The notes: generated from the letters alone by a model not told the origin. A stretch of 64,000 nt of DNA from Spirochaetales bacterium (GCA_016926955.1 JAFGNN010000080.1:12483-76482); one strand, 5' to 3'. Positions 4,597-60,453 are shown, counted from the first letter of the stretch. Made by a program: numbers and translations.

Positions 4597-4604
4597 CCGC
4601 GCAA

Positions 4605-4775
4605 CCGATTGGAGGAGCGATCCCCATGAGTAGCCGGACGGAGGGCGGGCAGCCCGAAGAGTTCCGGTGAAGGGGGAGGATCGCCGAAGGGAAGCGCGGA
4701 GACGCCCGCCGCCTTCCTTGGACGTCCGGGCCAATACCCGACGGCTGTCGCGGGACTCAACTCGAGTTTCCGCGG
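4605..4775 (+). promoter_or_regulatory. lysine riboswitch (L-box)
   Basis: Conserved L-box blocks in the correct order: GGAGGAGCG..CAUGAGUAGCC, GGUGAAGGGGGAGGAUCGCCGAAGG, and CGGCUGUCGCGGGAC. It lies in the 5' leader of a DAP/lysine operon. The downstream hairpin GGGATCTCC/GGAGGTCCC (about 4832-4859) can occlude the SD before GTG 4862. Confidence 0.8.
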
Positions 4776-4861
4776 AGTGCCATCGATTCTCGTCCCCGAA
4801 ATGAGGTCCGGAACGGACCGGGACGGTTTCATGGGATCTCCTTCGGATTGGAGGTCCCTCC

Positions 4862-17965: not shown

Positions 17966-18403
17966 ATGAACATCGAATTCCGGGAGATCGACGACGACAA
18001 CTTCGACGAGTGCGTGGCCCTCGCCGTGCGCGAGGACCAGCCCTTCGTCGCGTCCAACATGAAATCGCTCGCTCAGGCGTACATCAACCATCGTGCGGTG
18101 CCGCGGGCCATCTATGTCGAAGGTGCGATGGTCGGCTTCCTCATGTACCTCGTGGACCGCGGCGGGGGCGAGCTCTACCTCTGGCGTTTCATGATGGACA
18201 AGGGCCGGCAGGGCAAGGGCTACGGTACCGCGGCCCTCGGACTCCTCGAGCGCATCGCGCGGGCAGAGCCCGGTGTCGTCCGCCTGAGGCTCGGCACTTC
18301 GCCGGACAACGCGAACGGCATCAAGGTCTACACGAAATTCGGCTTCGTCGATACGGGTCTCCTCGAAGACGGCGAAGAGGTGTTCGTGAAGGAACTCAGG
18401 TAG
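17966..18403 (+). CDS. GNAT-family N-acetyltransferase
   Basis: The acetyl-CoA binding motif RQGKGYGTAAL, and the FGF motif of KFGFV near the C-terminus. Confidence 0.85.
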   Translation: MNIEFREIDDDNFDECVALAVREDQPFVASNMKSLAQAYINHRAVPRAIYVEGAMVGFLMYLVDRGGGELYLWRFMMDKGRQGKGYGTAALGLLERIARAEPGVVRLRLGTSPDNANGIKVYTKFGFVDTGLLEDGEEVFVKELR

Positions 18404-18423: not shown

Positions 18424-19074
18424 GTTTCGATTCCCTCAGCGCTAAGAATGTTGAACACCGCCATTCGGCGGCGTTCTCCGGTTGGGCGCTGAGGGAATCG
18501 CCCTCCGGCTTTCGGCATGCGTCGCTGCGCGCCGCTTTCGGGGATGAGGGGATTGACGTGCCCGCTGTGGCGGGCGACCTCATCCTGCCTCAAGCCTCCG
18601 GGCCGCCTGCGCGGCTTGGGCCGACATGCGTCGCTTCGCTCCGCTTTCAGAGAGGTAATGATTCACGTGCCCGCTTGCGCGGGCGACCTCATCCTGTCGG
18701 CCCATCCTCGACCCGTCCTCAAACGATCGGACAGGTCGAGGACCGCCGCTCCGTTTCAAATCCCTCAGCGCCCCGATTGAAAAAGGCCGCCTTGCGGCGG
18801 CCTCGGTCGTGGGCGCTGAGGGAATCGCCCTCCATGCCTCGGCTTCCTGCCTCGGCTTTCCGGGCCGCCTCGTCGCCTTCGCGCGCCATGCGTCGCTACG
18901 CGCCGCTTTCGGAGTGGAATGGATTGTCGTGGTCGCGCTCCGCGCGACCTCCTCATCCTTGGCGCGCGATCCGCCCGACGCGCTGCGATGTCTCGCGCGT
19001 CGGACGGATCGGCGACTCGGTTCGAATCCCTCAGCGCCCCGATTGAAAAGGCCGCCTTGCGGCGGCCTCGTTGG
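18424..19074. repeat. array of tRNA-Val-3'-end-derived inverted repeats and ~72-nt structured sub-repeats
   Basis: Three compound hairpins: CCCTCAGCGC(CC)...inner GGCCGCC/GGCGGCC stem...GGGCGCTGAGGG at 18431-18497, 18760-18825 and 19021-19090. Three diverged ~72-nt copies (18516-18587, 18625-18696, 18887-18960) all start CATGCGTCGCT and end CCTCATCCT. Confidence 0.85.
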
Positions 19075-19116
19075 TGGGCGCTGAGGGATTCGAACCCCCG
19101 ACCTACTGGGTGTAAA
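19075..19116 (-). repeat. distal att-like direct repeat (copy of tRNA-Val 3' part)
   Basis: The 42 bp TGGGCGCTGAGGGATTCGAACCCCCGACCTACTGGGTGTAAA are identical to 34185-34226, in the same orientation. Confidence 0.95.
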
Positions 19117-19310
19117 TCGTGCTACCGGCTTGGAACGAAAATGTGGCGTCATGAATAAAGTATTGTAAATAAAGCACTTGCAATCAAGCGGATATGAAAT
19201 GAAATGAAACGAAGGGCGCGAAAAGTCGAGAAAACGGGCGATTTTCAGTAACAAATTCAGTAACACGGGGCAGGGCTCGTAAGGATTGACACAACCTACA
19301 ATGGGTAGTG

Positions 19311-19648
19311 TTAATCGAATACGAAGATGGCTTCCTTCGCCTTGAGAGCGAAGCCTTCAAAGAGCAGCTTCTTGACCGCCGGGGTGAACCAAATACCGTG
19401 GTAGACGGTGTAACGGTTTGACTGCGTATCAAAGCCCCCCCGCGAGGCGGGCGTAAATACTCTTCCTGATCAAGCCTGCTCAGGACATAGATGGGCGACT
19501 CCAGCTTATGGCCGTCCCGGTTCGTGGCATGGTCTTCGGAGCTAATGATCCGCTTGCCATAGGAGACGCCGACCTCAAGGTCATAGGTCAATGCGATGAA
19601 GAACGAGTCGAGTCGGCGGGTGAGCCAGCAAGTTCCCACTTCTCCCAA
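19311..19648 (-). pseudogene. small hypothetical gene interrupted at a G7 tract
   Basis: TTG-start ORF (GEVGTCWLTRRLDSFFIALTYDLEVGVSYGKRII...) turns into Ser/Arg/Pro-rich junk after the G7 run (C7 on the + strand, 19435-19441). The frame reached by adding one G reads FDTQSNRYTVYHGIWFTPAVKKLLFEGFALKAKEAIFVFD* and ends at 19311. Confidence 0.45.
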
Positions 19649-19710
19649 AGTAGTCTCATCCTGTGGAACCTCGAATAATTGGATCCGGGAATGGTAGGAC
19701 AGAAACGGAC

Positions 19711-21180
19711 TCAGCGACAGGTTCGCGTCAGGACCTCATGAAGCCTCACCATTGCGAGCGTGTCGAGACCGCAGTAGTCCCTGAGTGCCTTGGCAAGCGA
19801 AGCCTTGCGATCCGGATCCTGCGTCGAAATCAGCTCGGCCCATGCGACCTGGGCATCCTCGCCGTTGCCGACCTCGAGTCCGTCGTAGCCGAGCTCCGGG
19901 CAGAGTACGGGCAGGACGTGCTTGATCGAGCTCGAGCCCTTGAAGGCGGGGTCGAAGTAGTGCTTACGGAAGATATCGAGAAGGTCGACGAACCTGGGCT
20001 GGAACAGGTTGAGGGGCATGGCGAACTCTGGGAGGAATGTAGCGAGTTTGCCGATCACGCTTTTCTCGAAGCTGGCGTTATAAGCGACGATGGAACCGGA
20101 TGATCCGATCTGAGCCAGCAAGGTACGGGCGATCGCGGGGCGGGGATCGCTCAGGTCCTGGTGAAGGAAGCCCGGCGTTTCCTCGAGTCGGCCGTCCTCG
20201 TGGAGGATGTGTAGCGAGAACTGGAACGGAATGCTGCCGAACGGTCCGAGCCCTTCAAGCCGGGGCAAGGCAGGTGCATCCGTCTCGAAGTCGAGGAAGT
20301 GGATCGGATACACCAGCCGCTTGAGCCAGGTGCGGATGCCGTCGACATCGATCTCCTTCGTCCCGGAACGATGGAGCCTCAAGAAGCGCTCACCTTGCGG
20401 TCCGAGCTCGGCGTCAGCCGGGACGTCCTCGAGTGCGAGGATGCCGCGTTCGATGAGGGCGTCGCGTTGTTCGGGATGCATGTGCGGAATGTCGAAAACC
20501 GACGGATCGGGCAGCATCCAGAGTCCGTCGCAGTAAGGACGGAACGGGCACTCGTAGGGCTTCGCGCAACGCGTCCCGAGGTGGACCGCGGGCTCTTGCG
20601 GATTGTCGAGTACAGCCTTCAACTCGGCGAGCTTGCCGGCGACCTCGGGCAGGTGTCGGCGAACGGGATCGGTGAGGTCGGCGAGGGAAAAGAGGTTCGA
20701 GAGGTCCGGGTAACGACAGCTCGTGTTGAGGTGCATGAGGACGGCCCTGCGGATCGGCAGTCCCGAACCTTCGTAGACGTAGGTCTGCACAGCGAGGTCG
20801 AGAATGTGTTCGGGCTTGGGGCCGGTGTTCGACTTCACCTCGTAGACGTCGAAGGATCCGTCGTCGTTCCGGGACAGCACGTCCGCGCGGGCGATGGTGT
20901 CGTCGTGGATGAAACAGGGCTCGAAAAGGACGCGAGCCCCGGCGGAAAGCGCCTCGGTCGTTTCGGTGAGGGCTGCACGCCATTTTAGCGGATCTTCGGA
21001 AATGAGGATGCCGCCAGGAAACCGTTCGCGCGCGAGGCGGCCGACCTCGTGGCCTTGCGAGAAAACACGGGCCCGGGCCGGGGATGGCGGCGGGAGCAGG
21101 TCACGACGATGCGTTTCGAGCCAAAGGCGCTTCGGGCATTGCCGTCCGACGAGGTACTTTGATTTTGAGAGTGTGGTCAT
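19711..21180 (-). CDS. DUF2779-type protein: N-terminal Cas4-like PD-(D/E)XK nuclease with 4 Cys, plus C-terminal DEDD-like exonuclease domain
   Basis: N-terminus LSKSKYLVGRQCPKRLWL. Nuclease motif D...FDVYEVKS. Cys triad CAKPYECPFRPYC. The C-terminal half has IHFLDFETD, AYNASFEKS and YCGLDTLAM acidic motifs. Confidence 0.75.
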   Translation of the reverse strand: MTTLSKSKYLVGRQCPKRLWLETHRRDLLPPPSPARARVFSQGHEVGRLARERFPGGILISEDPLKWRAALTETTEALSAGARVLFEPCFIHDDTIARADVLSRNDDGSFDVYEVKSNTGPKPEHILDLAVQTYVYEGSGLPIRRAVLMHLNTSCRYPDLSNLFSLADLTDPVRRHLPEVAGKLAELKAVLDNPQEPAVHLGTRCAKPYECPFRPYCDGLWMLPDPSVFDIPHMHPEQRDALIERGILALEDVPADAELGPQGERFLRLHRSGTKEIDVDGIRTWLKRLVYPIHFLDFETDAPALPRLEGLGPFGSIPFQFSLHILHEDGRLEETPGFLHQDLSDPRPAIARTLLAQIGSSGSIVAYNASFEKSVIGKLATFLPEFAMPLNLFQPRFVDLLDIFRKHYFDPAFKGSSSIKHVLPVLCPELGYDGLEVGNGEDAQVAWAELISTQDPDRKASLAKALRDYCGLDTLAMVRLHEVLTRTCR

Positions 21181-21255
21181 CCAGTATCTCCGCTGTGCGA
21201 TAGTTCACTTCGCACTGTTTCGGGTTGGCCTCCATTTTTTTCCGGCGGTGATCGG

Positions 21256-21885
21256 TCAGCGCCTGAAATCCTCGCGGTTCCTTCCGACCAGATCAGTGAA
21301 GTAGTCGGCAACCGCCGCGTACTTGCTCTTGTCCACCAGTCCGATCAGTTCTTCCCATTCGAGGACGATGAAAGGTTGTTTGGATTCTCGCGAATAACCT
21401 AAAAGCCGATGGTAATTGCTATCCGGATGGTTCGCCGCCTGCATCACTGCCGTGTGCTTCCGCCTGGTCAGGAGAAGTGCTTGGATGACGTTGATCTGAA
21501 ATTTATCCCTGAGTATCTTGATGCGCTCCGCATTGGCGGTGATATCCTTATCGAAGTTCCAGTCCGTGAGGAATTTTGCCTCGATGGCGATGACCGAGCG
21601 ATTCGCCAAGTCCTCGATCAGGATATCTGCCAATTCACCCTTATCGGATGAATTTTCCAGCAGATAGGAATGGTAGTCGAACGAGGCAAGCAGAGTACCG
21701 TCGAAGTTCTCAAGCTTGAACGTGCTGCCGGATTCTAGAAGCCTCCGGTTGAGCAGCAGGCGCAAAGCTTGCGTCCTGGATTGGTAGCCATCCACGAGCT
21801 CATTCAGGAAGAACCCGGCGAAGAACTTGTAGTAGAGATTCCGTTCTTTCTCCGATTCAAACAGCATCGTCTTATCGAAGATCAT
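21256..21885 (-). CDS. hypothetical protein with PD-(D/E)XK-like motif
   Basis: ELADILIEDLANRSVIAIEAKF fits a D-x(n)-E-x-K nuclease core. ATG 21885 follows a GAGGGGAG RBS. Visibly lower GC than neighbouring genes. Confidence 0.5.
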   Translation of the reverse strand: MIFDKTMLFESEKERNLYYKFFAGFFLNELVDGYQSRTQALRLLLNRRLLESGSTFKLENFDGTLLASFDYHSYLLENSSDKGELADILIEDLANRSVIAIEAKFLTDWNFDKDITANAERIKILRDKFQINVIQALLLTRRKHTAVMQAANHPDSNYHRLLGYSRESKQPFIVLEWEELIGLVDKSKYAAVADYFTDLVGRNREDFRR

Positions 21886-21936
21886 GGCAACTCCCCTCTT
21901 TGTATTGTCAGATCGAGTTTCAAGGAACGACACAAA

Positions 21937-22779
21937 TCATGTCTTGCGAATAAGCGCTACAAACCTGTCCCCCTGCTTCTCAAACCCGTCGACCGACTCC
22001 GCCGCCTTCTCGAGACCGGCAAGCACCTCGGCAAGGATCGATGGGAGCGGTGCGTAGCCGCCTTCGGACTTGGTTCGCTCGAGCGCGGCTTCGACGATGG
22101 GCGGGATGCCGACTTCGTCCCAATCGCCCGAAGGGAAGAAGACGAGGTCGCCGCGTTCGAGCGGCAGCTTGAACGCTTTCCAGCCTCCCTGCATTTCGAT
22201 CATCATGGAGGGCATCATGCCGAGTGGGGGACCTGAGACCAGCTTGAGCTTGCGGCAGGACTTCGTGTCTTCGCGGTAGAGGTATGCGTCTGGACCGCCG
22301 GCGGAGAGCCAGGCCGATTCCCCCGATTGGGATATGACGCCGAGGCCGAGCATGGCGAAGCGCCCGGGAAGACGGCGTTCGAGGAGCGCGTCGTTGTGTT
22401 CCTCGACGAAAGCCTTGAGCTCCCGCGCTCCGGCGTTGGGCTTGAAGCGCTCCGAAAATCGGGCGGCGAGATCCTGGGATTGGAAGGCCGGAACGAGTCC
22501 CCGTCCCGAACATTTGAAGAGCCCGATGGCTCCGCCCCGTTCCGGACCGGGCAGGACGAAGGAAGCCGAGGAAACTTGGTTGGGCAGGACGAGATGGATA
22601 CCCGCCTCGAAAGATCCGAAGGAAGACACCGCGTGCGCCTGCGTGCCGTCGCCCGACGGTTCGGCGCCGAGCAACCTGAGCTGCAAAGCCGCAAGCTGCT
22701 CCACGTGCTCGGGGCCGAAGAGATTCGGGCCGGATGCTGTCCCATTGACCGGTTCCACGGTGCCGTCTTCATCGTGCAT
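21937..22779 (-). CDS. SpoIIE/PP2C-like domain protein with degenerate catalytic motifs
   Basis: Four collinear blocks match the SpoIIE/RsbU pattern: GLFKCSGRGLVPAF (expected DVSGHGxxAA), LSAGGPDAYLY (expected nAGHpPpll), SGPPLGMM (expected g.pLG), and ERGDLVFFPSGDWDE (expected pGD.lllyTDG..E). ATG 22779 follows a GAGGAG RBS. Confidence 0.55.
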   Translation of the reverse strand: MHDEDGTVEPVNGTASGPNLFGPEHVEQLAALQLRLLGAEPSGDGTQAHAVSSFGSFEAGIHLVLPNQVSSASFVLPGPERGGAIGLFKCSGRGLVPAFQSQDLAARFSERFKPNAGARELKAFVEEHNDALLERRLPGRFAMLGLGVISQSGESAWLSAGGPDAYLYREDTKSCRKLKLVSGPPLGMMPSMMIEMQGGWKAFKLPLERGDLVFFPSGDWDEVGIPPIVEAALERTKSEGGYAPLPSILAEVLAGLEKAAESVDGFEKQGDRFVALIRKT

Positions 22780-22921
22780 GTGCGCTCCTCGATGGGATCT
22801 ATCATCTCCGCATCGTTTCCGCGTCGCCGGCGTCGGCGCGACTTCGGTCGGGGTCAAACGATAAGGCATGGTCGGGCTGATTTCCACGTGAAGCCCCGCG
22901 CGAATCCGCGAGCGGCGGTCC

Positions 22922-25255
22922 TTAAGCGCTGAAGCCGATCCTCCGCCCCGCCGGCGCGGCGCGGCAAGCGAGCTCCGCCTCGAGACGGCCGAGGACGAAG
23001 CCGTGCTCGAGCCTGGCGGAGCCTCCGCGGGCGGCTACGACGGGTACGAGGGCCTTGTGCACGGCCGCGAAATCGCCGGGACAGAGTCCTTCGAGCCGCG
23101 CGAGGCGCTCGGACGCGCCTGAGTCCGGCTCGCCGCAGAGCTCGGCGAAGTAGCTTCGGTAGAGCTGGAGTCGCTTCCCGGCGTCAGGCGGGGCGAAGGT
23201 GAGCTTCCACTGGAAACGCCGCATGGCAGCCGCGTCGAAGTCGTCGCGGCGGTTGGTACAGCAGACGAGGATGCCCGCGAAGCTCTCCATCCGGGTGAGG
23301 AGCTCGTTGGTCTGGCTCCGCTCCCAGCCGCGTTCCGCGCGTGCGCGGTCGAGGAAGAGGCTGTCGGCCTCGTCGAGGAGGAGCAGGGCGCCGGACGCTT
23401 CGGCTTCCTCGAAAGCGTCGGCGATGTTCCGCTCGGTGCCGCCCACGAACGGCGAGAGCAGGTCGGACGCGCGCTTCTGGACTAGCGGCAGCTCGAGCGC
23501 GTCGGCGAGCCAGCGTGCGTAGGCGGTCTTGCCCGTTCCCGGGCCGCCCGAGAAAAGGAGCTTGGCTTCGAGGACTTCCGGGGAGCCATCGCATGGGTTG
23601 AGCGGGAGGATCGTTCCCTCTGCGGCGCGCTTTCGTTCCTTGAGGGAGCGGGCGACGTGCTCGAGCCCCGCGCGCAGTTCCTCGAGGCTCGTGTCGACGT
23701 TGAGCGCGCCGGGCAGGTAGCGGGAGTCGCGCGCTTTCCGGAGGCTTTCGGGCGCGCGACGGAGCCCGGTCATGAGCGTCTCGTGCCGCCCCAGGATCTC
23801 CGAGAGTACCGCGAGCGGCTCTCCTTCGGCCAGAGGGTTGCCCGAATCGACGACGCTCCTCAAGGCCCGGAGCGCAGCGTCGATGCCGCCCGCACTCACC
23901 TCGAATTTCTTTGCCAGGGCCTGGACGGATTCCTCGGCGACGACCTTGGCGAGCCCGTAGCCGTCGAGGAGCTCGCGCCATACGCCTTCCCGCGCGCGTT
24001 CGTCCTGGCGCCGGAATTCGAGGCTGTAGACGAAGCGACGCTTGATGGCGTCGTGGACGCCGTCCACCTCGTTGGCGATCCAGACCGTCGCGGGAGAGCG
24101 GGCGTCGAGGAACTCCGCGAGCCAGGCCTTGGCCGCGGCAGCGCCCGGGCGGTCGAGGTCGGCGCCCGCGAGGAAGGATTCGCACTCGTCGACGACGAGG
24201 ACGCCGCCGGAGGCAGCCGCGACGTGGGCGGCCATCTTGAGCCTGAGAAAAGCCGGCTTGTTCTCCGCGTCGGCCCCGCCCGAGCCGAGGACGAAGGCCT
24301 TGAGCCCGGCTTCGCACAGGAGGTTGGCGACGAAGGTCGTCTTGCCCGTGCCGGGCGCGCCATGGACGAGGACGGCGCCGCCGCCGCTCCGCAGCACTGC
24401 CTCGACGATACGGCGCGAAGCCGCGGGCACAGAGAAACGCCCAAGGGGCGCGCGGCGCACGAGAGAATCGGCCATGAAGGTTTCGAGCGGCTTCGCCATC
24501 GTCTGGAGGGAACCTTCGCCCGCGAAGAACTCTCGGAGCTCCTCGGCGAGCACGTAATGGGGCGGGGGAAAGAAGTCCTGGATGACGAAGCCGGGCTTCA
24601 CGAGCTTTCCGTCCGGCGCGAGCATCTCTTTCAGCTCGCGGAGCGGAAGGCTTGAGCAGACGGACAGGACACGCTGGTAGTCCGAGAGCTTGAGGCTGTC
24701 GAGAAGCTCGCGGAAGGCGGGTTCGGACCCCGCGCACCAGATGAAGGTCAGCGTTTCGATTTCGCCTTCCGGAAGCGCGAAGACCGACGCGAGCTTCTCG
24801 CGGTGGGCGAGGAAAGGATCGCAGAGCTCGCGGCCAGCGTGGCTCGTGCGGAAGGCGGCGAGGGTTTCGCGCTCGATCAGGGCCGGGTCGATTCCGGGAC
24901 GCGTGGAACGCGCGCTATCCCGCGATCCGCGCTCCCAGTCAACCCAGGCCGAGACGACGAGGGGGCTGAGCTCCCCGGACCGGCCGGATTCCGCGAACGG
25001 ATTTTCATCGTCGTCCTTCGCGTCCGAACTCTCCGCCGCAGATGCGTTGCCGAGGAGGGCGTGATGGAGCGCGGCGCGCGAGGGCTCGTCAAGGGTGCGC
25101 TCCATCGCCCGGAAAAGCTCCTTCGAGAAGGGCAGGACGAGCCGCGCCCGGTCGAGGTAATACGCCACCAGGTCGAAGAGGGAGGAGCCGTTTTCGGCGG
25201 ACGGGAGGGGCGAACCCTCGCCGTCGGCGAGTATCCTGCGTGGCGCGCTCGACAT
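22922..25255 (-). CDS. large ATPase with two AAA+ modules
   Basis: Module 1: VLVHGAPGTGKTTF with VLVVDECESF. Module 2: LLFSGGPGTGKTAYA with LLLLDEADSLF and a TNRRDDFDAAAMRRF second-region-of-homology-like segment. ATG 25255 follows a GGAGG RBS. Confidence 0.8.
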   Translation of the reverse strand: MSSAPRRILADGEGSPLPSAENGSSLFDLVAYYLDRARLVLPFSKELFRAMERTLDEPSRAALHHALLGNASAAESSDAKDDDENPFAESGRSGELSPLVVSAWVDWERGSRDSARSTRPGIDPALIERETLAAFRTSHAGRELCDPFLAHREKLASVFALPEGEIETLTFIWCAGSEPAFRELLDSLKLSDYQRVLSVCSSLPLRELKEMLAPDGKLVKPGFVIQDFFPPPHYVLAEELREFFAGEGSLQTMAKPLETFMADSLVRRAPLGRFSVPAASRRIVEAVLRSGGGAVLVHGAPGTGKTTFVANLLCEAGLKAFVLGSGGADAENKPAFLRLKMAAHVAAASGGVLVVDECESFLAGADLDRPGAAAAKAWLAEFLDARSPATVWIANEVDGVHDAIKRRFVYSLEFRRQDERAREGVWRELLDGYGLAKVVAEESVQALAKKFEVSAGGIDAALRALRSVVDSGNPLAEGEPLAVLSEILGRHETLMTGLRRAPESLRKARDSRYLPGALNVDTSLEELRAGLEHVARSLKERKRAAEGTILPLNPCDGSPEVLEAKLLFSGGPGTGKTAYARWLADALELPLVQKRASDLLSPFVGGTERNIADAFEEAEASGALLLLDEADSLFLDRARAERGWERSQTNELLTRMESFAGILVCCTNRRDDFDAAAMRRFQWKLTFAPPDAGKRLQLYRSYFAELCGEPDSGASERLARLEGLCPGDFAAVHKALVPVVAARGGSARLEHGFVLGRLEAELACRAAPAGRRIGFSA

Positions 25256-25425
25256 GTCGGCCTCCTTGCGCGATGCTGTCGGCAAGGATATCGGGACAGG
25301 GTGACAGCGATTGACACCGCCGGCCGGTCTCCTGGAAATTCGCGGTGGCTTCCGGAGGTGACGGTTCCTGTCATCGTCGGACGCGATCATGAGGGAAGGA
25401 CCGCAGAAGCGATGGAGGAAGCGCG

Positions 25426-26346
25426 GTGAGCCTGAAGCTCGACAATCTCATCACCCTGTTCGATTACCTCTCGGAGCACCAGTGGCGGAGCGCGGAGCAG
25501 GTGGCGCGCAGGCTCGAGGTGGACCGCCGGACCGTGTTCCGGTACATGGACGAGGTCGAGCTCGCCTTCAGCCCGGTGCCCGTCATCGAGCGCGGGCGCG
25601 AAGGCTACCGCCTCTGCCGCAACGATTTCCTCGACGTGCTCCAGTCGCGCGAGGACTACGCAGGCGTCGCGGCCCTGGTCGCGTCACCCTTAGGAGAATT
25701 GGCGAGCGGCGGCAAGCCCTTGCCGGACCGGCTCCTCAGGCAGGCCCGGGAGCTCGTGGAGACGAGGGCGAGCCTCGAGCCGAAGCTGCTCCGCCAGCTC
25801 TTCGAGGCGATGCGCTCCGGCGTGTTCCTGGAGCTTTCCTACACGGCCAAGGACGAGCCCCGGCCGCACCGCGTCGTCCCGATCAAGTTCGCCTTGCGAT
25901 CCGGCATCCCTTACCTCGTTGCGTTCGACGAAGGCTACGGGCACCTCATCGTGCTCGCCGCGGACAAGATCGGCCGCGCCGCGAAGTCGCGGAAATTCCT
26001 CACCCCCGATGAGCTTTCGTCGCTGCGAACCTACGTCAACTCGGCCTGGGGCGTCATGGTGCGCCACAAGGAGCGCCTCGTGAGCGAGCTCTCGTTCGAG
26101 GCGAACCGATCGGCCGCGGCTTTCTTCGAAAAAGCCCCGCTCCACCCGAGCCAGCGCTGCGAGCGGGAAGGGGAGCGCTTCGTGTTCACCCTCAAGGTCC
26201 ACAGCGAAGGCGAGTTCTTCCGCCACATCCTGCGCTTCGGCCGGGGGGCGCGCGTCGTCGCTCCCGAAAGCGCCATCGCGGAAGCCCGCGCCTTCCTGGC
26301 CTCGATGGGCGAGTTCTATGGTTCCGCCGGCACGGTGGAAGCTTGA
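25426..26346 (+). CDS. WYL-domain transcriptional regulator (HTH-WYL-WCX architecture)
   Basis: N-terminal HTH (WRSAEQVARRLEVDRRTVFRYMDEV). Central WYL-like block (HRVVPIKFALRSGIPYLVAFDEGYGHLIVLAADKI). GTG start after a GGAGGA RBS. Divergent from the AAA+ operon. Confidence 0.8.
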   Translation: MSLKLDNLITLFDYLSEHQWRSAEQVARRLEVDRRTVFRYMDEVELAFSPVPVIERGREGYRLCRNDFLDVLQSREDYAGVAALVASPLGELASGGKPLPDRLLRQARELVETRASLEPKLLRQLFEAMRSGVFLELSYTAKDEPRPHRVVPIKFALRSGIPYLVAFDEGYGHLIVLAADKIGRAAKSRKFLTPDELSSLRTYVNSAWGVMVRHKERLVSELSFEANRSAAAFFEKAPLHPSQRCEREGERFVFTLKVHSEGEFFRHILRFGRGARVVAPESAIAEARAFLASMGEFYGSAGTVEA

Positions 26347-26402
26347 AAGGAAGCGGGGCGCGGCTTACCCTTTCACGAAGAACGGAACGATGAGGTAAGT
26401 AC

Positions 26403-28571
26403 ATGGATCTCGTATCGAACGAAGACAACTTGGGGCCGCTCAAGGCGCGGATAGCGGAGTACGCGGGAAGCGACGCGAACCGCGACGGCGAGGTGCTGAT
26501 AGGCTCGGGCTGGATACAGTCCGACTACTTCAAGCGGATATTCCCCGACGAGGTCGTCGCCGGACTTGCGGCGCGCGGCATCGGCGTCCGGGTCCTGCTC
26601 CGCGTCGGGAGCCCCACCGACTTGAAGATTTCCGACCTGGCCTTGTTCCGCGCGATGGTCTCGATGCGGCGGAAGGGCGTACGGACTTCGCTCCGCTTCT
26701 CGCGACATCACCATGCCAAGCTCTACGTTGTCGGTTCGGGCTACGCGATGCTCGGCTCCTTCAACCTCACCTCAGGCGGCTTCGGCGACGAAGACCGGCA
26801 CGGGAAGAACCCCGAGGCCGGCATCGCGACCACGGCCAAGGGCGAGGTCAAGGCGGCCGCCGCGCGCTTCGAGGCGATGTGGGCGGAGGCGGACGAGCTC
26901 GCGGACTCGCTGGCCGGGTTCGTCGCCAACGAGTCGGAAGACTCGGGCTTCTGGATGATCGGCGTGCGCGAGCTGCCCGCCGGCATGTTCGTCCAGGTGA
27001 AGGTCGGGGAACGGATCGTGCTCGGGAAGGTGGAGCGGAGCCTGCGCTACCGGCGCGACTTCTTCGGGGCCGACCGGGAATCGATCCTCGCCAATCCCTT
27101 CATCTTCGAGCAGTTCGGCATCGCCAAGCCCGCCCGCGAAATAGGCGGGATCAACCCGGTCGCGCTGAACGGCGTCGCGTCCGCGGGCAACGTCGACGCC
27201 CAGCTCGAGATCGCCCGGGTCAAGGCCATACGGAGTATCGAACCAAAGCCGGATGGCGGCCTCTCCTACGAGGCGTCATCGTTGCCTCCGCAGGTCGGCG
27301 CGGAGGTGCACGAGGCCGACCCCGCGCTGTTCAGGACGATGTTCGACCCCGCCGCCTGCGGCCGGCCCTACGCGACGCTCCGGGACAACCGCGAGATCGC
27401 GGTCTCGTTCGCCCCAGAATCCATGCTGGCCATGCACAGCGCCGTGCTCGGCGCCACCGGATCGGGGAAGTCGCATTTCATGAAGCGCTACCTCGCGGAC
27501 TTCCTGGCCCCCTATAACGAGTCGACCTGGAAGGGGCGCGTCGTCATCGTCGACACGCACGGCGAATACGGCGACTTCCTAGACGGGGCGGGGCTGGCGT
27601 ACGCCAACCTGGATTTCAAGACGGGAGAGCGCCTGGGTTTCGACGCGCCGCTCGTGGAGACGCTCGACGACTTCGTCGACCTCTACGACTTCAAGCCCGA
27701 CCGGAAGCTGAAGCGCCGCATCGTCGAGGCGCTGGCCATGAAGGACAAGCTCGACCAGGATACGTTCGTGCGCATCCTCGAGGAGGCCGCCTCCGACGAG
27801 GCTCGGCTCGACGCGATGCAGTACGTGGCCGATATTCTCGACAGCGAAGGCGAACCGGAAGTCGCCGAGGAACTGGTCAAGGAGTTCAAGAAGGCGCAGG
27901 ACCGTATCGCGCGGGCGAACGCCGTCTTCGACAAGAAGCGAAGGGCGGTTGCCATCGCGAACGTGCACAAGGAACTGGCCGACAAGGTGCTCAAGACCTA
28001 CGGTTACGGCAATTCCGAAACGCCGGCGCAGAAAGTCATCGCGGCCATCCAGCGCGACGGAATCCGCTTCGACCGGCTCGACTTCCTTCCGCAGCTGAGG
28101 AAGCCCGGCCTCTACCGCCTCGACCTGCGTCAGACGAGCGACCGGGAGACGCGGCAGGCCGTCGCGGGCGAGCTCATGGGGCAGATCTTCGAGGAAGCGA
28201 AGCGGACCGGCAAGTTCAACACCCTCTTCATCGTCGACGAGGCACAGAACTTCGCGCCGCAGGGGGAAGGGAAGTCCGTGCCCTCGAAGCGCGCCATGCG
28301 CATCGTCGCCTCGGAAGGCCGCAAGTTCCGCGTCGGACTCATGATCGCCACGCAGCGCCCCGCCTACGTCGACAAGGACGTCCTTGCGCAGTGCAACAGC
28401 CAGGCGATCTTCCGCCTCATAAACAACCTCGACATCGCCCAGGTCGAGAATACCGTCGAAGGCATCTCGAAGGTCGACCTCGACCAACTGCCGAATTTCG
28501 TGGCGGGCGAGGCCTTGTTCACCGGCGTGGCGATGACGATGCCGGTGAGGGTGAGGGTGGCACGCAGCTAG
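26403..28571 (+). CDS. PLD-family nuclease / HAS-barrel / HerA-type (DUF87) ATPase fusion protein
   Basis: HxK..GSxN motif: RHHHAKLYVVGSGYAMLGSFNLT (aa 101-123). HAS-barrel-like segment: MFVQVKVGERIVLGKVE. Walker A GATGSGKS (aa 350-357), Walker B LFIVDEAQNFAP, and IATQRP. Confidence 0.8.
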   Translation: MDLVSNEDNLGPLKARIAEYAGSDANRDGEVLIGSGWIQSDYFKRIFPDEVVAGLAARGIGVRVLLRVGSPTDLKISDLALFRAMVSMRRKGVRTSLRFSRHHHAKLYVVGSGYAMLGSFNLTSGGFGDEDRHGKNPEAGIATTAKGEVKAAAARFEAMWAEADELADSLAGFVANESEDSGFWMIGVRELPAGMFVQVKVGERIVLGKVERSLRYRRDFFGADRESILANPFIFEQFGIAKPAREIGGINPVALNGVASAGNVDAQLEIARVKAIRSIEPKPDGGLSYEASSLPPQVGAEVHEADPALFRTMFDPAACGRPYATLRDNREIAVSFAPESMLAMHSAVLGATGSGKSHFMKRYLADFLAPYNESTWKGRVVIVDTHGEYGDFLDGAGLAYANLDFKTGERLGFDAPLVETLDDFVDLYDFKPDRKLKRRIVEALAMKDKLDQDTFVRILEEAASDEARLDAMQYVADILDSEGEPEVAEELVKEFKKAQDRIARANAVFDKKRRAVAIANVHKELADKVLKTYGYGNSETPAQKVIAAIQRDGIRFDRLDFLPQLRKPGLYRLDLRQTSDRETRQAVAGELMGQIFEEAKRTGKFNTLFIVDEAQNFAPQGEGKSVPSKRAMRIVASEGRKFRVGLMIATQRPAYVDKDVLAQCNSQAIFRLINNLDIAQVENTVEGISKVDLDQLPNFVAGEALFTGVAMTMPVRVRVARS

Positions 28572-28765
28572 TAATCCTCGAAAATAAACAGTCTGGAAAG
28601 CCGTGCCAACATCTGTGCTTGGAAATATATGTGATGAAAAGGAGAAAGGTGAGTGTTGAATCTTAATAGCAAATAATGCATAGCCGTATTTGGGCAGAGT
28701 TGACTGTTTGAATTTGAAGACGATGATGTATTCAAAGATTAGCATTTCCAGAAGAAGGAGTCGTG

Positions 28766-29299
28766 ATGCGTCCTTACAGAAGTATCGACTTGGATGAAGC
28801 GCTGGTCATTGATGAGATTGAGCGGTATCGCCAGGGTATGGAGCTTGGGAATTGCGACTTCATTACTTTTATTCCCACTAGTCCTCGGCAGGAAGGAGTG
28901 GATATTCTCTATTTTAAAAGCCCCATCTATAAGACCATCCAGGTGAAGGGATCACGGGTTTATGATAACCGCAGTAGTCTTCCGACAGCATGGATCGTTC
29001 TACCGGACAAGTATTTCTCAAAAAAAACCTGTCCTGCCATCGACTTCTTTGTTTTTGTCTTCCATGTAGTAGTAGGTGGAAAGCATAAGCCCAAATTCAC
29101 TCAGGAGTATTTGGTGGTTCCGTTTGCTGATATGGATTCATATATAGTAACAAATGGGATTAAATCATCCGGTGGCAAGTATCATTTTGCGTTCGAAATC
29201 GATTTGGCACGAAAGTCTATAATCCAAGTTCGACATAAATTGGTTGCCTTGAGCTCGAGCAACTTCACAAAATACTGGAACAATTGGAGTCAGCTTTGA
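28766..29299 (+). CDS. hypothetical protein, Mrr-like PD-(D/E)XK candidate
   Basis: AT-rich 177-aa ORF with an AAGGAG RBS. GVDILYFKSPIYKTIQVKGS fits a D-x(n)-Q-x-K restriction-endonuclease-like core. Confidence 0.5.
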   Translation: MRPYRSIDLDEALVIDEIERYRQGMELGNCDFITFIPTSPRQEGVDILYFKSPIYKTIQVKGSRVYDNRSSLPTAWIVLPDKYFSKKTCPAIDFFVFVFHVVVGGKHKPKFTQEYLVVPFADMDSYIVTNGIKSSGGKYHFAFEIDLARKSIIQVRHKLVALSSSNFTKYWNNWSQL

Positions 29300-29660
29300 T
29301 TGGATAGCTCTGTCTTGAACTTTTGGTTGTGTCCAGTTAAAAGATAATAATACCGATAAGGTAATTCGCGGCTCGATGGGTGCTTTCGACCGAATTACCC
29401 GAGCAGTATCGGGTGACGAAATATATAGTTGGAGCGCTTGAGGTAAGGTCGGAAAGCTCGATCTAAAAGTCTGAAGGCGAGAGCCGCATCCTGAGGGGGG
29501 CGGCTCTCGCTAAAAGGTGGTAGTTACGAGCTCTCAGCTCCTGAGCGGATCTGTCTGCCGTTCGGGTGATTTGGGCCGGATTTGGGGCCGGATCACATCA
29601 TCTTGTGACATGGGGCTAAACAAAACCGAGGCTGTTCTGATATTACAATCGGGATAGGAA

Positions 29661-30893
29661 TCAAGGCCGGACAACCCGGAATCCGAAATCTTGGACCTGG
29701 GCGGGGGGATAGTAGTGGAATCGAAAAGCCAAGGCGCAGAAAGATGAATCGTTGCCCCAGCTACCTCCGCTCGCGATACGCTCCGTGCCCGAATCCGCCC
29801 CCCGGTAGTCCGTAACCGTACCTGTGGGGTAGTCGCCATACCAGTCCCAAGTCCATTCAAACACATTGCCGCTCATGTCGTAGAGCCCAAGCTCGTTGGC
29901 GCCCGCCGTTTTACTGCCAACGGGATTACTTCTTTCCGTATCGGTCCTTCCAGTTTCGGTTTGGTAATAACCAAAGACGGCATAGTCACCTATTGTATTG
30001 CTCCCGGTGCTCCCTGCAAAAGCTTTTAGGTAACCTGTGGTGTTTATTGCTCCGGGATCGGCAGTATCAGCACCCATGGCTGCCCAGAGCCATTCCATCT
30101 CCGTCGGCAAGCGATAACCATCGGCATTCCAATTGGCGGTTGCCGCATCCCAAACGGCCTGCAAAGCTGGATCAGCGAATCCGGTTGGTATTTGCGGGAA
30201 AGTAAGGGTTGTGAAATCCACTCCACTCACCTCATATACAGGTGTAAGGTCTTCGGTTATGCTCAGCTTGTTGCAGAAAGCAATGGCGTCGTACCAGCTC
30301 GTCATCTGTACAGGGTCTGTAGTGCCGCTTGAGTAGGTCGGATCACTCGGATCTGTAGAGAAAACCGCCGCAAATTGCTCCCTCGTAATTTCATGCGTAC
30401 TTATGCGATATGGTGACGTTATGACGCTGATATTGCTGGCCGTGGCATCCCTTTGAAACCTACCAGCAGGCACGAACTTCAAGATGCCGATATTGGGCGA
30501 ATCGTAATTCTCGCCCCAGGTGGCAGGGAAAACCGCGGTGACCACGCCCGAATCAGCCGGGTTCGAGACGCTCGAAGCCCCTTCAACCTCGAAGAAGTCC
30601 CCGGCAACGCCGGTCAGCGTAAAGCCGGACTTGGGTGTCAGCGTGATGGTAGCGGTATATACCGTGCTGGCTGCAAAGGTAGCCGGAGAGCCGTTCCACG
30701 TGACAGTTCCGGTATACTGGATGGTCTCGGCAATCGCCGTTACCGGGGTGGCGCCATAGACCGGCGCGCTTACTCCATGTATGGCGGCGATGTCGATCAC
30801 CGCATCTGCTGCCGGAGTAACGGGGCTTTGGCATCCAACTAATGAAATAACAGTAAACGCCAGCAGCATCGTGTGCCTCAGTTTTCTATTCAT
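29661..30893 (-). CDS. lipoprotein with FGE-sulfatase (SUMF1/PvdO-type) domain
   Basis: Signal peptide with lipobox (VISLVGC). C-terminal YRLPTEMEWLWAA, GLYDMSGNVFEWTWDWY and GGSW motifs of the formylglycine-generating-enzyme fold. Confidence 0.8.
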   Translation of the reverse strand: MNRKLRHTMLLAFTVISLVGCQSPVTPAADAVIDIAAIHGVSAPVYGATPVTAIAETIQYTGTVTWNGSPATFAASTVYTATITLTPKSGFTLTGVAGDFFEVEGASSVSNPADSGVVTAVFPATWGENYDSPNIGILKFVPAGRFQRDATASNISVITSPYRISTHEITREQFAAVFSTDPSDPTYSSGTTDPVQMTSWYDAIAFCNKLSITEDLTPVYEVSGVDFTTLTFPQIPTGFADPALQAVWDAATANWNADGYRLPTEMEWLWAAMGADTADPGAINTTGYLKAFAGSTGSNTIGDYAVFGYYQTETGRTDTERSNPVGSKTAGANELGLYDMSGNVFEWTWDWYGDYPTGTVTDYRGADSGTERIASGGSWGNDSSFCALAFRFHYYPPAQVQDFGFRVVRP

Positions 30894-31273
30894 TTTCTGG
30901 CTCCTTGAATGGGAAAATGACTAAAGGCTTAAGGAATATTGTATCCATTGAGCCTGTCGTCCATTGCATCGGACAGTTTATTGTAGGTCACATTATTAAA
31001 GGCCGCAAATTCCGGCATGTCGAATTACTCATACAGTCTCGATCCGCTAGCCCGTCTTTCTCAAGGAAGTATTGCCAACCATCGGGAGGGGGGTGAAAAC
31101 CGGACCGCAACCAATAGATGGCTTTGGGGAAGGTGTTTGGCACAAGTGTTCATCTCTTCTCGGAATGACCAACATGCCGGGCAGTAAGTCGCAAGAGTGG
31201 GACAAGGTCTGGATCGGAGTCCTCACCGAGCTCGAATTGACGAGTACTAGGGTCTCTGTGCCAGTCTGGGTCT

Positions 31274-31897
31274 TCACATTATATCAAATGAATGTTTAGA
31301 AAGATCCTCGTGGAGATCGATATCCCTTACATGCAAAGTGATGTTGGTTTCAGAGATATCGCTAAACACAATATTTGGACTAAATCCCATCGCCTGTTCG
31401 ATGACATCGAGCATCGCTTTTTCATAGTAGAGAATATTGCCTCGCTTGAGGCTGTCATGGATTTCATAGTTACCATTGCCTAGATTAATAATGGTGTATG
31501 GGCTTATTACGTCAACCCCATATTGCGAATATGCATCAGCTAAGTATCGATCGCTGATGTTGTTATGACCGATTCCTGCATAGGCAGTCACACCTGACTT
31601 ATTGGAATCACCATTTGAAATGCTTTGAAGATTACTGATTTCCACGTTATTGATCCTAAGATTTCTTTGCATCCACTCAAGTTTTCCATATTTCAACTCA
31701 CATAACAGCCAATCATGGTCATCTTTAGTGAATTTGCTGTGGTTGCTGTCTATATAACTTATACAGTAGCAGTTAATGATCATTCCCTTTAAGTGCTTTT
31801 CGGCACTTTTACTTGTGATTTCTCCTCTGAGCTGAGTTTCGAAATCATTAAGGCTAGAACAAATCTGGCTAATTAAGGACTGGATGGTATAATTCAT
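31274..31897 (-). CDS. hypothetical protein (AT-rich)
   Basis: 207-aa ORF with normal composition in a strongly AT-rich segment. No family recognised. Confidence 0.45.
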   Translation of the reverse strand: MNYTIQSLISQICSSLNDFETQLRGEITSKSAEKHLKGMIINCYCISYIDSNHSKFTKDDHDWLLCELKYGKLEWMQRNLRINNVEISNLQSISNGDSNKSGVTAYAGIGHNNISDRYLADAYSQYGVDVISPYTIINLGNGNYEIHDSLKRGNILYYEKAMLDVIEQAMGFSPNIVFSDISETNITLHVRDIDLHEDLSKHSFDIM

Positions 31898-32241
31898 GTT
31901 CTACTCCTCTTTGCAAGAGAAACAGGTATCAGCGGTTTTGATACTACCCGCGTAGTATCAATCATCAATCGACGGGCCACAAGTAAAAAATAAAACTGCG
32001 TGATGTCGAACCGCGCTTCATGCCTCGTGCCGTCGGCCAGTTCGATCTCGACGAGGTCGAGCCAACCATCGGGGGCGCGGGGCATGAGGCGCTGGCTCAC
32101 GAACTTCCAGTCCCGGTCGCGTTGGCCGAATCGCTGTTCCAGGTACTCGTACTCGAGCGGGACGCCAGTCGCGGAGTCGGGCGCGTGGATGACGACGAAA
32201 TCGCCTTTGTCCTCGAAGCAGGGTGCCGGTCGATTCGTCAT
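31894..32241 (-). CDS. hypothetical small protein translationally coupled to the DUF5131 gene
   Basis: Its ATG overlaps the DUF5131 stop (ATGA at 32238-32241). The GC-rich body (MTNRPAPCFEDKGDFVVIHAPD...FDITQFYF) runs into the AT-rich segment, so the last ~30 codons are probably not native. Confidence 0.45.
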   Translation of the reverse strand: MTNRPAPCFEDKGDFVVIHAPDSATGVPLEYEYLEQRFGQRDRDWKFVSQRLMPRAPDGWLDLVEIELADGTRHEARFDITQFYFLLVARRLMIDTTRVVSKPLIPVSLAKRSRT

Positions 32242-32984
32242 TTCACGAACCCCTTCGGGAACTCGTCCCAAGTCCGGCCGTCGAGCTCGCGGAGCTGGTC
32301 CTTGTGGCTCGTCCCGAGCTGCTTGATGAAGAAGGGAATGCCGTGGCCGATGGCCTGGTCGCGAATCTCGCGGGCCCAGGCGAGATCCAGGGGCCGAGCC
32401 CGTTTCCCGGTCTCGGAGCCGACGATGATCCACTCGAGCGGCAGGTGGGCGGACAAGTCGACGGGGCCGAGGAGCGGCTCGAGGACGACGACCCGGGTGC
32501 CCTTTACCCGCGCGAGTTCGGGCAGGCGCTCGTCGGCGGTGGCCTGGTTCTCGACCGATACAGCGACCGCGAGATGGCCGGGCAGTCCCGCGGGATAGCG
32601 CCGGGTCAGGACCTCGGCCATCCTCCGGGCGCGCTTTGTCCAAAGGAGGTACTTCGGAGTCCTGCGCTTCCGCGCCGCGACAGCGTCGACGATCGAGAGT
32701 ACCGTGTCTATCGTGGCCTCGGGCACCTTTTCCCAAAAGAGGTCGCCGTGCTGGACCACGCCGACGATACCGTTCTTCGGGTACAGCGCATCCTCGGAAA
32801 GGCGCTTCGGGAACGCGTGGGACTCGTCCGGGCGGACCCCGGCGGGGATGTTCCCGAGCCTCTGCTGCCAGGGGAAGATGCCGTCGAGGTACCAACAAGC
32901 TCGGCATCCGGCCGAGTAGCGCTCGCATCCGATGACCGGGTTCCAGTCGCCGCTGAGGACGTCGCCCGGGTTCTTCTTGGCCAT
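32238..32984 (-). CDS. DUF5131 (phage Gp37/Gp68 family) protein
   Basis: N-terminal three-Cys motif WNPVIGCERYSAGCRACW, and the later IIVGSETG and IPFFIKQLG blocks typical of this family. ATG 32984 follows a GGAGG RBS. Confidence 0.7.
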   Translation of the reverse strand: MAKKNPGDVLSGDWNPVIGCERYSAGCRACWYLDGIFPWQQRLGNIPAGVRPDESHAFPKRLSEDALYPKNGIVGVVQHGDLFWEKVPEATIDTVLSIVDAVAARKRRTPKYLLWTKRARRMAEVLTRRYPAGLPGHLAVAVSVENQATADERLPELARVKGTRVVVLEPLLGPVDLSAHLPLEWIIVGSETGKRARPLDLAWAREIRDQAIGHGIPFFIKQLGTSHKDQLRELDGRTWDEFPKGFVK

Positions 32985-33128
32985 GGGCCCTCCTTGAGGG
33001 TCGGATTTCGACCGTCGGAACGAACGATATACCCTTGTGGTGACAATAAGCGTCACCATGACGCATTACCTTGATCGCATTGGTATCCATTCGGGAAACG
33101 CCGGCGGGCCTGAGCCGGCAAGGAGGAC

Positions 33129-33353
33129 ATGATGAGTGTAACGTGCGGCGCGTGTTCGCGCGAGCTCGATCCGGGCCATGACGCTTGCTGGCTCTGCCCC
33201 GACTGCGAGGATCCCCGGGTACTGTTATGCCCCGCGTGCGCCCCGTCGTCGAAGCGCTGCCCTCGCTGCGGGGCCGACCTTTCGTACCGGGAAACGTCCA
33301 TCACCAAGAAGGCCTTCTTCAATCCCGCGACGCGCGGGCTCCTCGGTTTCTAG
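33129..33353 (+). CDS. small multi-CxxC zinc-ribbon protein
   Basis: 74 aa with an AAGGAGG RBS. Five CxxC pairs: CGAC, CWLC, CPDC, CPAC, CPRC. Confidence 0.55.
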   Translation: MMSVTCGACSRELDPGHDACWLCPDCEDPRVLLCPACAPSSKRCPRCGADLSYRETSITKKAFFNPATRGLLGF

Positions 33354-33363
33354 CTGACGCGCG

Positions 33364-34110: not shown

Positions 34111-34184
34111 TTACCCGAGGCTGAGGATCGAGAACGCAATAGGCTTGTGGCCATTTTGCAAAGTCGCTGCTTGCTAATTCCTTA

Positions 34185-34226
34185 TGGGCGCTGAGGGATT
34201 CGAACCCCCGACCTACTGGGTGTAAA
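34185..34226 (-). repeat. proximal att-like repeat within tRNA-Val (anticodon loop to discriminator)
   Basis: Identical to 19075-19116. Confidence 0.95.
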
Positions 34227-60350: not shown

Positions 60351-60367
60351 TACCATGCCCGGAAGAG

Positions 60368-60441: not shown

Positions 60442-60453
60442 TGATACGCGAAA

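Follow-up and report, generated by a model that had tools for sequence, protein, structure and literature searches.

The subject of this study is the segment 18424-19116 of a 64,000-nucleotide stretch of DNA from a Spirochaetales bacterium (GCA_016926955.1, JAFGNN010000080.1:12483-76482); the whole stretch is referred to below as the window. The segment is located between a GNAT gene and an island, on the other side of which lies the intact gene of tRNA-Val(TAC), and it contains repeated copies of the 3′ end of this tRNA. We will argue that it is almost certainly the array that originally lay behind tRNA-Val and was separated from its gene by the island, and that it is built from a conserved structured element, which we call the Val-trailer unit.

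The array behind tRNA-Val

The sequence that is copied in the array is the last 21 nt of tRNA-Val, GGTTCGAATCCCTCAGCGCCC. Six copies, three direct and three inverted, are found within 18426-19096, where about 0.4 would be expected by chance, in agreement with the first-pass annotation of this DNA, which had noted the tRNA end three times in both orientations. Exact matches to the 13-mer GGGCGCTGAGGGA are found at 18484, 18811 and 19076 on the plus strand and at 18761 and 19027 on the minus strand, in addition to the tRNA gene itself at 34186, and allowing up to one mismatch gives 7 matches in the window compared to 0.42 expected from shuffled sequences. For the pattern TCCCTCAGCGC-N25-55-GCGCTGAGGGA there are 3 matches (18432-18496, 18761-18823 and 19027-19088), with 0.00 expected from the shuffles.

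The copies can pair to form three compound hairpins, as had been proposed, with arm complementarities of 21/21 in hairpin 3 (19019-19039 with 19076-19096), 15/15 in hairpin 1 and 13/13 in hairpin 2. The inner stem GGCCGCC-TTGC-GGCGGCC that was part of the same proposal is present in hairpins 2 and 3, which are scored as minus-strand terminators, whereas hairpin 1 has a different one, GAACACCGCC-ATTC-GGCGGCGTTC. The terminator scan places the two signals at 19051-19063 and 18786-18798, each with a U-run behind a GC-rich stem in the tRNA sense.

The right arm of hairpin 3 was said to run into an attachment-site (att) repeat, and it is indeed the start of that copy. Positions 19075-19116 are identical to 34185-34226; the identity spans exactly 42 bp and does not extend further on either side, and the last 21 nt of the copy constitute the first arm of the array, D0. 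Since the exact recurrence stops there, 19117-34184 can be assigned to an inserted island and 19075-19116 to the displaced end of the tRNA. In the closest relative (loci L083/L033, with a neighboring kinase that is 90% identical) there is no island, and the same terminator and 5′ arm follow directly behind an intact tRNA-Val. The island has therefore merely split tRNA-Val from its array. Terminator Ta of the array is the original tRNA-Val terminator, the same hairpin being found behind the tRNA in L083 and L033.

Read in the tRNA sense, i.e. along the minus strand, the array has the order tRNA 3′-end copy, terminator, inverted arm, core with the helices P2, P2a, P2b and P3, next copy, and next terminator. 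The compound hairpins are the joints of this arrangement, D(n)-terminator-I(n+1), leading from the tRNA to unit 1, from unit 1 to unit 2, and onward. Two full units and one orphan arm are present in the window (Table 1). The two direct copies inside the array, 18483-18506 and 18810-18833, are the same 24-mer, and its T-loop is 2 nt shorter than that of the tRNA. When its insertion is removed, unit 1 aligns to the canonical units of other genomes, and unit 2 without its two insertions aligns column for column with L068_u1, L054_u2 and L045_u1. The covariance model R1 (see below), run on the 64-kb window, matched unit 1 and nothing else, unit 2 being missed because of its two insertions; a model search with the filters off misaligned the window units, again because of their insertions. 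The orphan arm abuts the GNAT stop codon, an ending that is also seen in the array of L070, which is closed by a terminal hairpin homologous to Tc. The array escaped Tandem Repeats Finder, owing to the strong divergence of its copies or to their indels.

Table 1. Features of the locus in window coordinates, listed from the tRNA gene toward the end of the array.
Feature	Position	Strand	Description	Evidence
tRNA-Val(TAC)	34185-34258	-	intact gene	ARAGORN; Rfam tRNA model, 71.3 bits
Island	19117-34184		inserted, ca 15 kb, between tRNA-Val and the original downstream array	composition, Pfam, empty site in relatives
PLD-nuclease+HerA gene	26403-28571		in island	
AAA ATPase gene	22922-25390		in island, 822 aa	
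DUF2779 gene	19711-21180		in island	
att repeat	19075-19116	-	original 3′ portion of tRNA-Val, now displaced; from anticodon loop to 3′ end	
Terminator Ta	19046-19067	-	GGCCGCC-GCAA-GGCGGCC then UUUU (tRNA sense)	terminator scan
Unit 1	18810-19039	-	230 nt	covariance model R1, 76.9 bits, E 1e-11, full model
Unit 1, arm I1	19019-19039	-		
Unit 1, P2 with P2a	18954-19016	-	followed by P2b loop with insertion	
Module m1	18887-18953	-	sub-repeat 3, 67 nt, in P2b loop of unit 1, right after AAGGAUG, ends CAUG	
Unit 1, P2	18872-18886	-		
Unit 1, P3	18827-18866	-	loop CAGGAAG	
Unit 1, arm D1	18810-18827	-		
Terminator Tb	18780-18802	-	behind unit 1	terminator scan
Unit 2	18483-18773	-	291 nt	alignment after removal of both modules
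Unit 2, arm I2	18755-18773	-		
Unit 2, P2 with P2a	18690-18749	-	followed by P2b	
Module m2	18625-18689	-	sub-repeat 2, 65 nt, in P2b loop of unit 2, after CAGGAUG	
Unit 2, P2	18611-18624	-		
Unit 2, P3	18581-18604 and 18500-18515	-		
Module m3	18516-18580	-	sub-repeat 1, 65 nt, in P3 loop of unit 2, after CAGGAUG	
Unit 2, arm D2	18483-18500	-		
Terminal hairpin Tc	18453-18476	-	GAACGCCGCC-GAAU-GGCGGUGUUC, closes array	read from sequence
Orphan 5′ arm I3	18426-18442	-	no core behind	15/15 complementary to D2
GNAT gene	17966-18403	+	convergent	Pfam PF00583

Fold and distribution of the Val-trailer unit

The repeating entity is a unit of ca 140 nt, because the inverted arm, the hairpins and the direct copy of the tRNA end recur together across the reoriented loci. 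We are highly confident of its anatomy, namely a 5′ arm, a core and a 3′ arm, followed by an intrinsic terminator. The 5′ arm has its complement in the final 17-21 nt of tRNA-Val. In the core of ca 105 nt (100-130 nt across loci), P2, with its branches P2a and P2b, meets P3 at a junction, and every core hairpin contains a symmetric tandem G·A/A·G internal loop, C-GA-G/C-GA-G. The 3′ arm is a further copy of the final 18 nt of the tRNA, the discriminator A included, and is then often followed by a terminator and another block. The two arms together form the closing helix P1. Pairing of the inverted arm with the upstream copy, as in the compound hairpins, is possible, but the downstream copy is an equally good partner, and pairing with it closes the unit; the P2/P3 cores fold identically whichever way the arms in the window pair.

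Single units share one fold, with z-scores of −7 to −10. In a seed of 9 sequences, 92% of the cells are paired, compared to 30-40% when the partners are slid. For 30 distinct units, in an alignment fitted to the covariance model, which somewhat favors structure, the corresponding values are 91.2% and 30-41%; changes on both sides are found in 36 of 49 pairs, and none of 500 shuffles came up to these values. Conservation across units extends to the tandem GA columns. The covariance model derived from this seed finds 31 units with E < 1e-6 in the tRNA sense, and its scores are 60-157 bits in this sense but below 31 bits in the antisense. A search of the window and 16 loci against Rfam 15, at the gathering score and with E up to 10, matched only the tRNA and lysine riboswitch models, and no prior description of the unit was found in the literature. 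The Val-trailer unit is an undescribed family, specific to tRNA-Val and supported by covariation.

A number of known classes were considered and rejected: a retron noncoding RNA (no reverse transcriptase gene), an integron attC site (no R-box core sites), a T-box (no downstream regulated gene), a primer-binding site (no complement to CCA) and a hammerhead ribozyme (no CUGANGA core).

We now turn to the occurrence of the unit in other genomes. A scan for the hairpin pattern, with one genome per species, gave ca 25 spirochaete loci, three in Paceibacteria and one unclassified, with tRNA-Val(TAC), a terminator and the inverted copy of the tRNA's own 3′ end, and a metagenome scan for the unit added 8 further loci. 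All units in these more than 30 spirochaete genome loci and metagenome contigs are at tRNA-Val, which lies directly upstream of every genuine unit that has enough flanking sequence. There are one to three units per locus, all in the same orientation, and the 64-kb window has a single locus. Four loci were fetched via homologues of the neighboring adenosine kinase, independently of the DNA pattern, and all four have the terminator and the 5′ arm behind tRNA-Val. Hairpins with U-runs follow the tRNA in all loci, with unrelated terminator sequences. Every 5′ arm is complementary to the tRNA over 21 nt, whereas the direct copies outside the tRNA share only 17-18 nt. In L087, the T arm of the tRNA is different (TTCGAGCCCCTCAGCGCCCA), and the 5′ arm matches that variant at 20 of 21 positions. 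In a single locus, L064 (4642-4818), ca 180 nt of unrelated sequence separate the tRNA-Val terminator from a canonical unit; it is the only one in which the 5′ arm is not directly behind the terminator.

The Paceibacteria loci, L044 (7306-7500), L018 and L032, have the same tRNA-terminator-arm-core layout and the junction motifs GAG-NC-GGGUCG...GACC in common, the 3′ arm being lost in two of the three. The tRNA of L044 is called as Ile(TAT) but has a tRNA-Val-like 3′ end; otherwise the layout is the same. Neither the arm nor the unit was found at other tRNAs, i.e. tRNA-Pro and tRNA-Arg in the window and others in the Paceibacteria loci. The window region with tRNA-Pro and tRNA-Arg (60278-60500) has a plain terminator behind it (60451-60483) and no inverted copy of the tRNA end.

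Upstream of tRNA-Val, the adenosine kinase and Lon are syntenic across loci, with the nearest named homologues in Rectinemataceae, and this synteny assigns the window to the Spirochaetota. They are the only conserved neighbors; the downstream genes vary, and no reverse transcriptase, integrase or transposase is linked to the units.

That the copies are chance resemblances to the tRNA end, or ordinary repetitive extragenic palindromic (REP) elements with genome-wide occurrence, is contradicted by the shuffle expectations given above, by the confinement of all genuine units in the more than 30 loci covered to tRNA-Val(TAC) and by the lack of a copy elsewhere in the 64 kb. We consider this explanation practically negligible, even though an 11-mer of the arm also ends an unrelated 73-nt dispersed repeat in Ca. 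Versatilivorator and is found in assorted palindromes. This palindromic repeat, with the ends TTTTTCCCTCAGCGCG...CGCGCTGAGGGAAAAA, occurs dozens of times per genome in Ca. Versatilivorator (L002, L004-L006, L008, L010 and others) and in Terriglobia L020. It has the 11-mer in common with the tRNA-Val arm, yet it is unrelated to tRNA-Val and looks like a family of REP elements or of transposable elements of the miniature inverted-repeat type (MITEs). The pattern matches in Versatilivorator, in Terriglobia, in a gammaproteobacterium and in L061-L080 were rejected as unrelated palindromes.

The first-pass annotation had offered fossil att sites, from serial integration and excision at this tRNA, as one origin of the repeats; islands would have entered tRNA-Val one after another and then decayed. 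There is a real island here with a 42-bp att repeat, and the direct copies start in the T-loop, which Williams in 2002 reportedly described as a known crossover sublocation of tRNA-targeting integrases. However, the copies comprise only the last 17-24 nt of the tRNA and not 42, inverted copies are not a product of integration, the same architecture exists without an island in L083 and many other loci, and the DNA between the copies is a conserved, covarying structured unit and not island debris. These findings contradict the proposal and make it highly improbable. Repeats of a tRNA 3′ end beside an island are thus not automatically att fossils, and the Val-trailer unit can be used as a marker of the ancestral tRNA-Val flank when island boundaries are located in spirochaete genomes.

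RNA and DNA readings of the unit

Among the three origins considered in the first-pass annotation, structured small RNAs or terminators is the best-supported one. We favor it in the form of a small RNA made by read-through transcription, to which we assign a probability of roughly one half. Three features identify the sense strand, namely the terminators, the conserved tandem G·A loops and the loops of P2b and P3. GGA is present in 29 of 33 P2b loops and in 24 of 35 P3 loops, compared to only 2-3 on the antisense strand, and the longer motif CA(N)GGANG fits 28 P2b and 21 P3 loops. Most of the GGA loops read CAGGAUG, CAGGAAG, CAGGGAUG or CAUGGAUG, often as GACAGGAUGUC. They match both the CsrB repeat, CAGGA(U/A/C)G, and the CsrA site obtained by SELEX, RUACARGGAUGU in a hairpin loop (PMC7652899). 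A read-through small RNA with two putative CsrA sites per unit is therefore favored.

In the mechanism that we propose, RNA polymerase coming from the tRNA-Val promoter would read through a leaky first terminator and thereby transcribe the unit into a small RNA, with the arm helix as a clamp and the next terminator as its end point. Processing, either by RNase III or, via mimicry of the acceptor/T-stem, by RNase P, could take place at the long arm helices. The exposed loops, CAGGAUG/CAGGAAG and CA(G/U)GGAUG, would bind a CsrA dimer, with two sites per unit, and the array would titrate CsrA in step with stable-RNA transcription. The read-through, the processing at the arm helices and the CsrA binding are all inferred. 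The titration of CsrA through the unit loops we put forward tentatively, as something that we would sooner doubt than expect.

The Csr/Rsm sponge RNAs (CsrB, CsrC and RsmX/Y/Z) resemble the unit in their loops, CAGGA(U/A)G or CA-N-GGA-NG, in the presence of several sites per RNA and in the 3′ terminator; rsmX genes can also lie in tandem. The unit, on the other hand, has no sequence or Rfam similarity to them, has 2 putative sites each, lacks GGA in about a fifth of its loops, has long and very stable stems, is embedded between copies of a tRNA 3′ end, and belongs to a phylum in which only FliW is known as CsrA antagonist. In sponges of the 3′ETS-leuZ type, a functional RNA is obtained from the trailer of a tRNA transcript, the 3′ external transcribed spacer. 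The unit would likewise be derived from a tRNA trailer, but those sponges base-pair with small RNAs, lie before the terminator and are not a repeated folded unit. The RrA, RrB and RrF small RNAs of E. coli, which arise by read-through and bind CsrA, are encoded between the dual terminators that close rrn operons (PMC8144298). The layout would be the same, with a small RNA gene flanked by two terminators where a stable-RNA transcription unit ends, whereas the E. coli RNAs follow rRNA operons, have no tRNA-end repeats and fold differently, and the read-through of the Val-trailer unit is a proposed one. Spirochaetes carry csrA together with fliW, and csrB/csrC homologues were not found in Leptospira genomes (PMC8668096); a CsrA-like open reading frame was not found in the window.

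A number of observations weigh against the read-through RNA. No promoter-like site was found, and expression therefore hinges on the proposed terminator read-through. About a fifth of the loops (14) read CACGAUG or CACGAAG, without GGA, 5 of 36 units are entirely without such a GGA loop, and GGA loops are absent from the Paceibacteria units. In the closing helix, 12 of 29 units have pair 1 open and 4 of 29 have pair 2 open; the first one or two bases of the 5′ arm are thus often free, which weakens a strict acceptor-stem mimic. Truncation of the 3′ side with survival of the 5′ arm is frequent (L086, L088, L032 and L044), and the minimum-free-energy (MFE) structure of the whole array in the window pairs the arms across the terminators, not around the units.

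Other points against the RNA also speak for a different reading, in which the unit is a DNA cassette, non-autonomous and either recombining or mobile, with the 3′ end of tRNA-Val as its target. The arms would then be terminal inverted repeats, or else a single-stranded stem that copies the duplex end of the tRNA gene, just as dif is copied by the folded attP of the CTX phage. A recombinase acting in trans, or homologous exchange at the arms, would insert, stack and shuffle the units, and the core would be a DNA hairpin signal. The internal helices comprise 798 Watson-Crick pairs with only 13 G-U and 15 A-C, and such a scarcity of wobble is unusual for a selected RNA and fits pairing at the DNA level; the G-U versus A-C strand test itself has no asymmetry and is thus compatible with either RNA or DNA. 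The cores are 80-91% identical between genomes in which the adjacent kinase is 44-48% identical and the terminators between the tRNA and the unit are unrelated. Furthermore, P2 and P3 variants are combined as mosaics, and the close relatives L007, L024 and L039 differ in the number and order of their units. The cassette would also account for arrays of one to three units that all point one way, for the same layout in Paceibacteria, and for arms that equal the target sequence, with the 21-nt complementarity of all 5′ arms. The three T-loop variants of the arms in the window (CGAAT, CAAAT and CGATT) match across the terminators (21/21 and 15/15) and not around the units. However, no recombinase, transposase or reverse transcriptase is conserved beside the units, a scan of viral contigs for the unit gave 0 matches, no target-site duplication flanks the units despite the 17-bp inverted arms, and no empty/filled pair with a clean unit insertion was found. 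The terminator behind each unit, the one-strand GGA loops and the conserved unpaired junction bases fit RNA better, and a circle of ca 200 bp is a poor substrate for known integrases. The MITE-like origin suggested in the first-pass annotation is, for the unit itself, a live rival in the form of this cassette, the main alternative, although we judge it less likely than the RNA.

As DNA elements, the pneumococcal BOX A-B(n)-C, Correia and REP elements, bacterial interspersed mosaic elements and MITEs have in common with the unit the terminal inverted repeats, the strong fold, the variable internal modules and the non-coding nature. They are dispersed in tens to hundreds of copies, while the unit has one locus per genome and arms that equal the adjacent tRNA end. 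According to what Val et al. are said to have reported in 2005, the CTX phage uses a folded single-stranded attP with a stem that mimics the duplex target. Like this attP and other Xer-exploiting elements, the unit has two inverted target copies and a spacer that can fold into a target-like stem, and it is stacked in tandem at the target; in contrast to them, it has no associated phage genome, replication gene or recombinase, and the element would be only ca 200 nt long.

A third option is that the arms are a functionless mutational by-product, generated as an inverted copy of the tRNA end by template switching at the terminator palindrome and kept identical to the selected tRNA by hairpin-templated gene conversion, and that the units are decaying neutral DNA. 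The persistence of the 5′ arm, which tracks the tRNA where the rest is lost (L087, L089, L032 and L044), the perfect Watson-Crick stems and the frequent truncation would be consistent with this. It gives no account, however, of the 105-nt core, of the conserved unpaired loops and junctions common to the families and Paceibacteria, or of the 91% identity between distant hosts, and we regard it as quite improbable.

We have also considered the more far-reaching idea that the Val-trailer unit is a new element class, in which the closing helix imitates the end of the tRNA gene or transcript. Most units keep the 3′ strand of this helix together with the discriminator A, and there is no T-loop. Minihelix substrates that resemble tRNA are known, such as the 4.5S precursor, mascRNA and the tRNA-like domain of the bacterial Y RNA. 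As in these, the 3′ strand of the closing helix is identical to the acceptor/T-stem strand of a tRNA and is followed by the discriminator base; the unit differs by having neither T-loop nor D-arm, a helix beyond 12 bp in which the first pairs are often broken, and no match to the Rfam tRNA model. Two forms can be envisaged. In the RNA form, the unit may be released from the tRNA-Val precursor by tRNA-processing enzymes and may be the first case of an RNA antagonizing CsrA outside Proteobacteria. In the DNA form, it may be a gene-less mini-element, folding as a single strand, whose integration at tRNA-Val is due to a stem copying the duplex target, spreading between spirochaetes and Paceibacteria and parasitized by a loop-specific 65-nt insertion element. 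The joint proposal is doubtful in our estimate.

If the unit is an RNA, a well-supported structured family (30 distinct sequences and 36 covarying pairs) is added to the Spirochaetota, which are poor in known small RNAs, together with a candidate RNA antagonist of CsrA, tied to tRNA transcription, where the cited literature proposes only the protein FliW. If it is a DNA cassette, it is an unusual gene-less element that has a single tRNA-end target and crosses phylum boundaries.

One further observation concerns the loops. The 10-mer CAGGAUGUCG, with 30 occurrences in 552 kb of loci, is found in many P2b and P3 loops (L007, L039, L054, L066 and others) and equals the 3′ strand of the anticodon stem plus the variable loop of the adjoining tRNA-Val (CCCAGGAUGUCGGGGG). 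The unit may descend from a copy of tRNA-Val, or the identity may be a coincidence with the CsrA-like consensus.

Insertion modules and the island

The first-pass annotation also described three units of ca 72 nt between the hairpins, with a common fold. The three sub-repeats are indeed present, at 18513-18587, 18622-18696 (81% identical) and 18884-18958 (63%). The proposed fold, in which GGATGAGG/CCTCATCC encloses GCCCGC/GCGGGC, is the MFE structure of copy 1 and partly of copy 2, whereas copy 3 has a different inner stem, and the folding z-scores are only −0.7 to −2.5. The sub-repeats are insertions of 65-67 nt, as excision restores canonical hairpins and as is seen from the alignment to the units of other genomes. 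Removal of m1 gives back the canonical hairpin, and excision of m2 and m3 gives back CCGACAGGAUGUCGG and GAGGCAGGAUGCCGA, respectively. Each module directly follows a GGAUG in the loop of P2b or P3 and has AUG at its end, with ATG present on both sides. The label MITE-like fits these precise loop insertions literally. With most of the loops in the window interrupted in this way, the local units may be crippled or decaying copies.

Relatives of the module are found inside or beside units in L015, L033/L083, L041, L045 and L060, and no further copy was found elsewhere in the window. In L083 (2580-2960, minus strand)/L033, four tandem modules of 65-75 nt follow the terminator and the 5′ arm, and both P3 and the 3′ arm are absent; the unit has therefore been destroyed there. 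In L060 (418-480), a 63-nt relative is located inside the 5′ arm (P1), between GGGA and TTTGAACC, and the module is thus not confined to the GGAUG loops.

The island itself has a lower and patchy GC fraction, 0.43-0.70 in the composition profile. According to Pfam, its genes encode a DUF2779 protein, a SpoIIE-like protein, an AAA ATPase, a PLD+HerA protein and an FGE-sulfatase; several open reading frames adjoining tRNA-Val are without a Pfam match, and no integrase was recognized in the island in Pfam scans, even at E up to 1. The PLD-nuclease+HerA protein, the AAA ATPase, the DUF2779 protein and the SpoIIE-like phosphatase have a defense-related look. Just inside the island edge, in an AT-rich stretch, there is an (ATGAA)x4 microsatellite at 19194-19213. 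Elsewhere in the window, a lysine riboswitch aptamer is located at 4602-4790 on the plus strand (Rfam RF00168, 83 bits).

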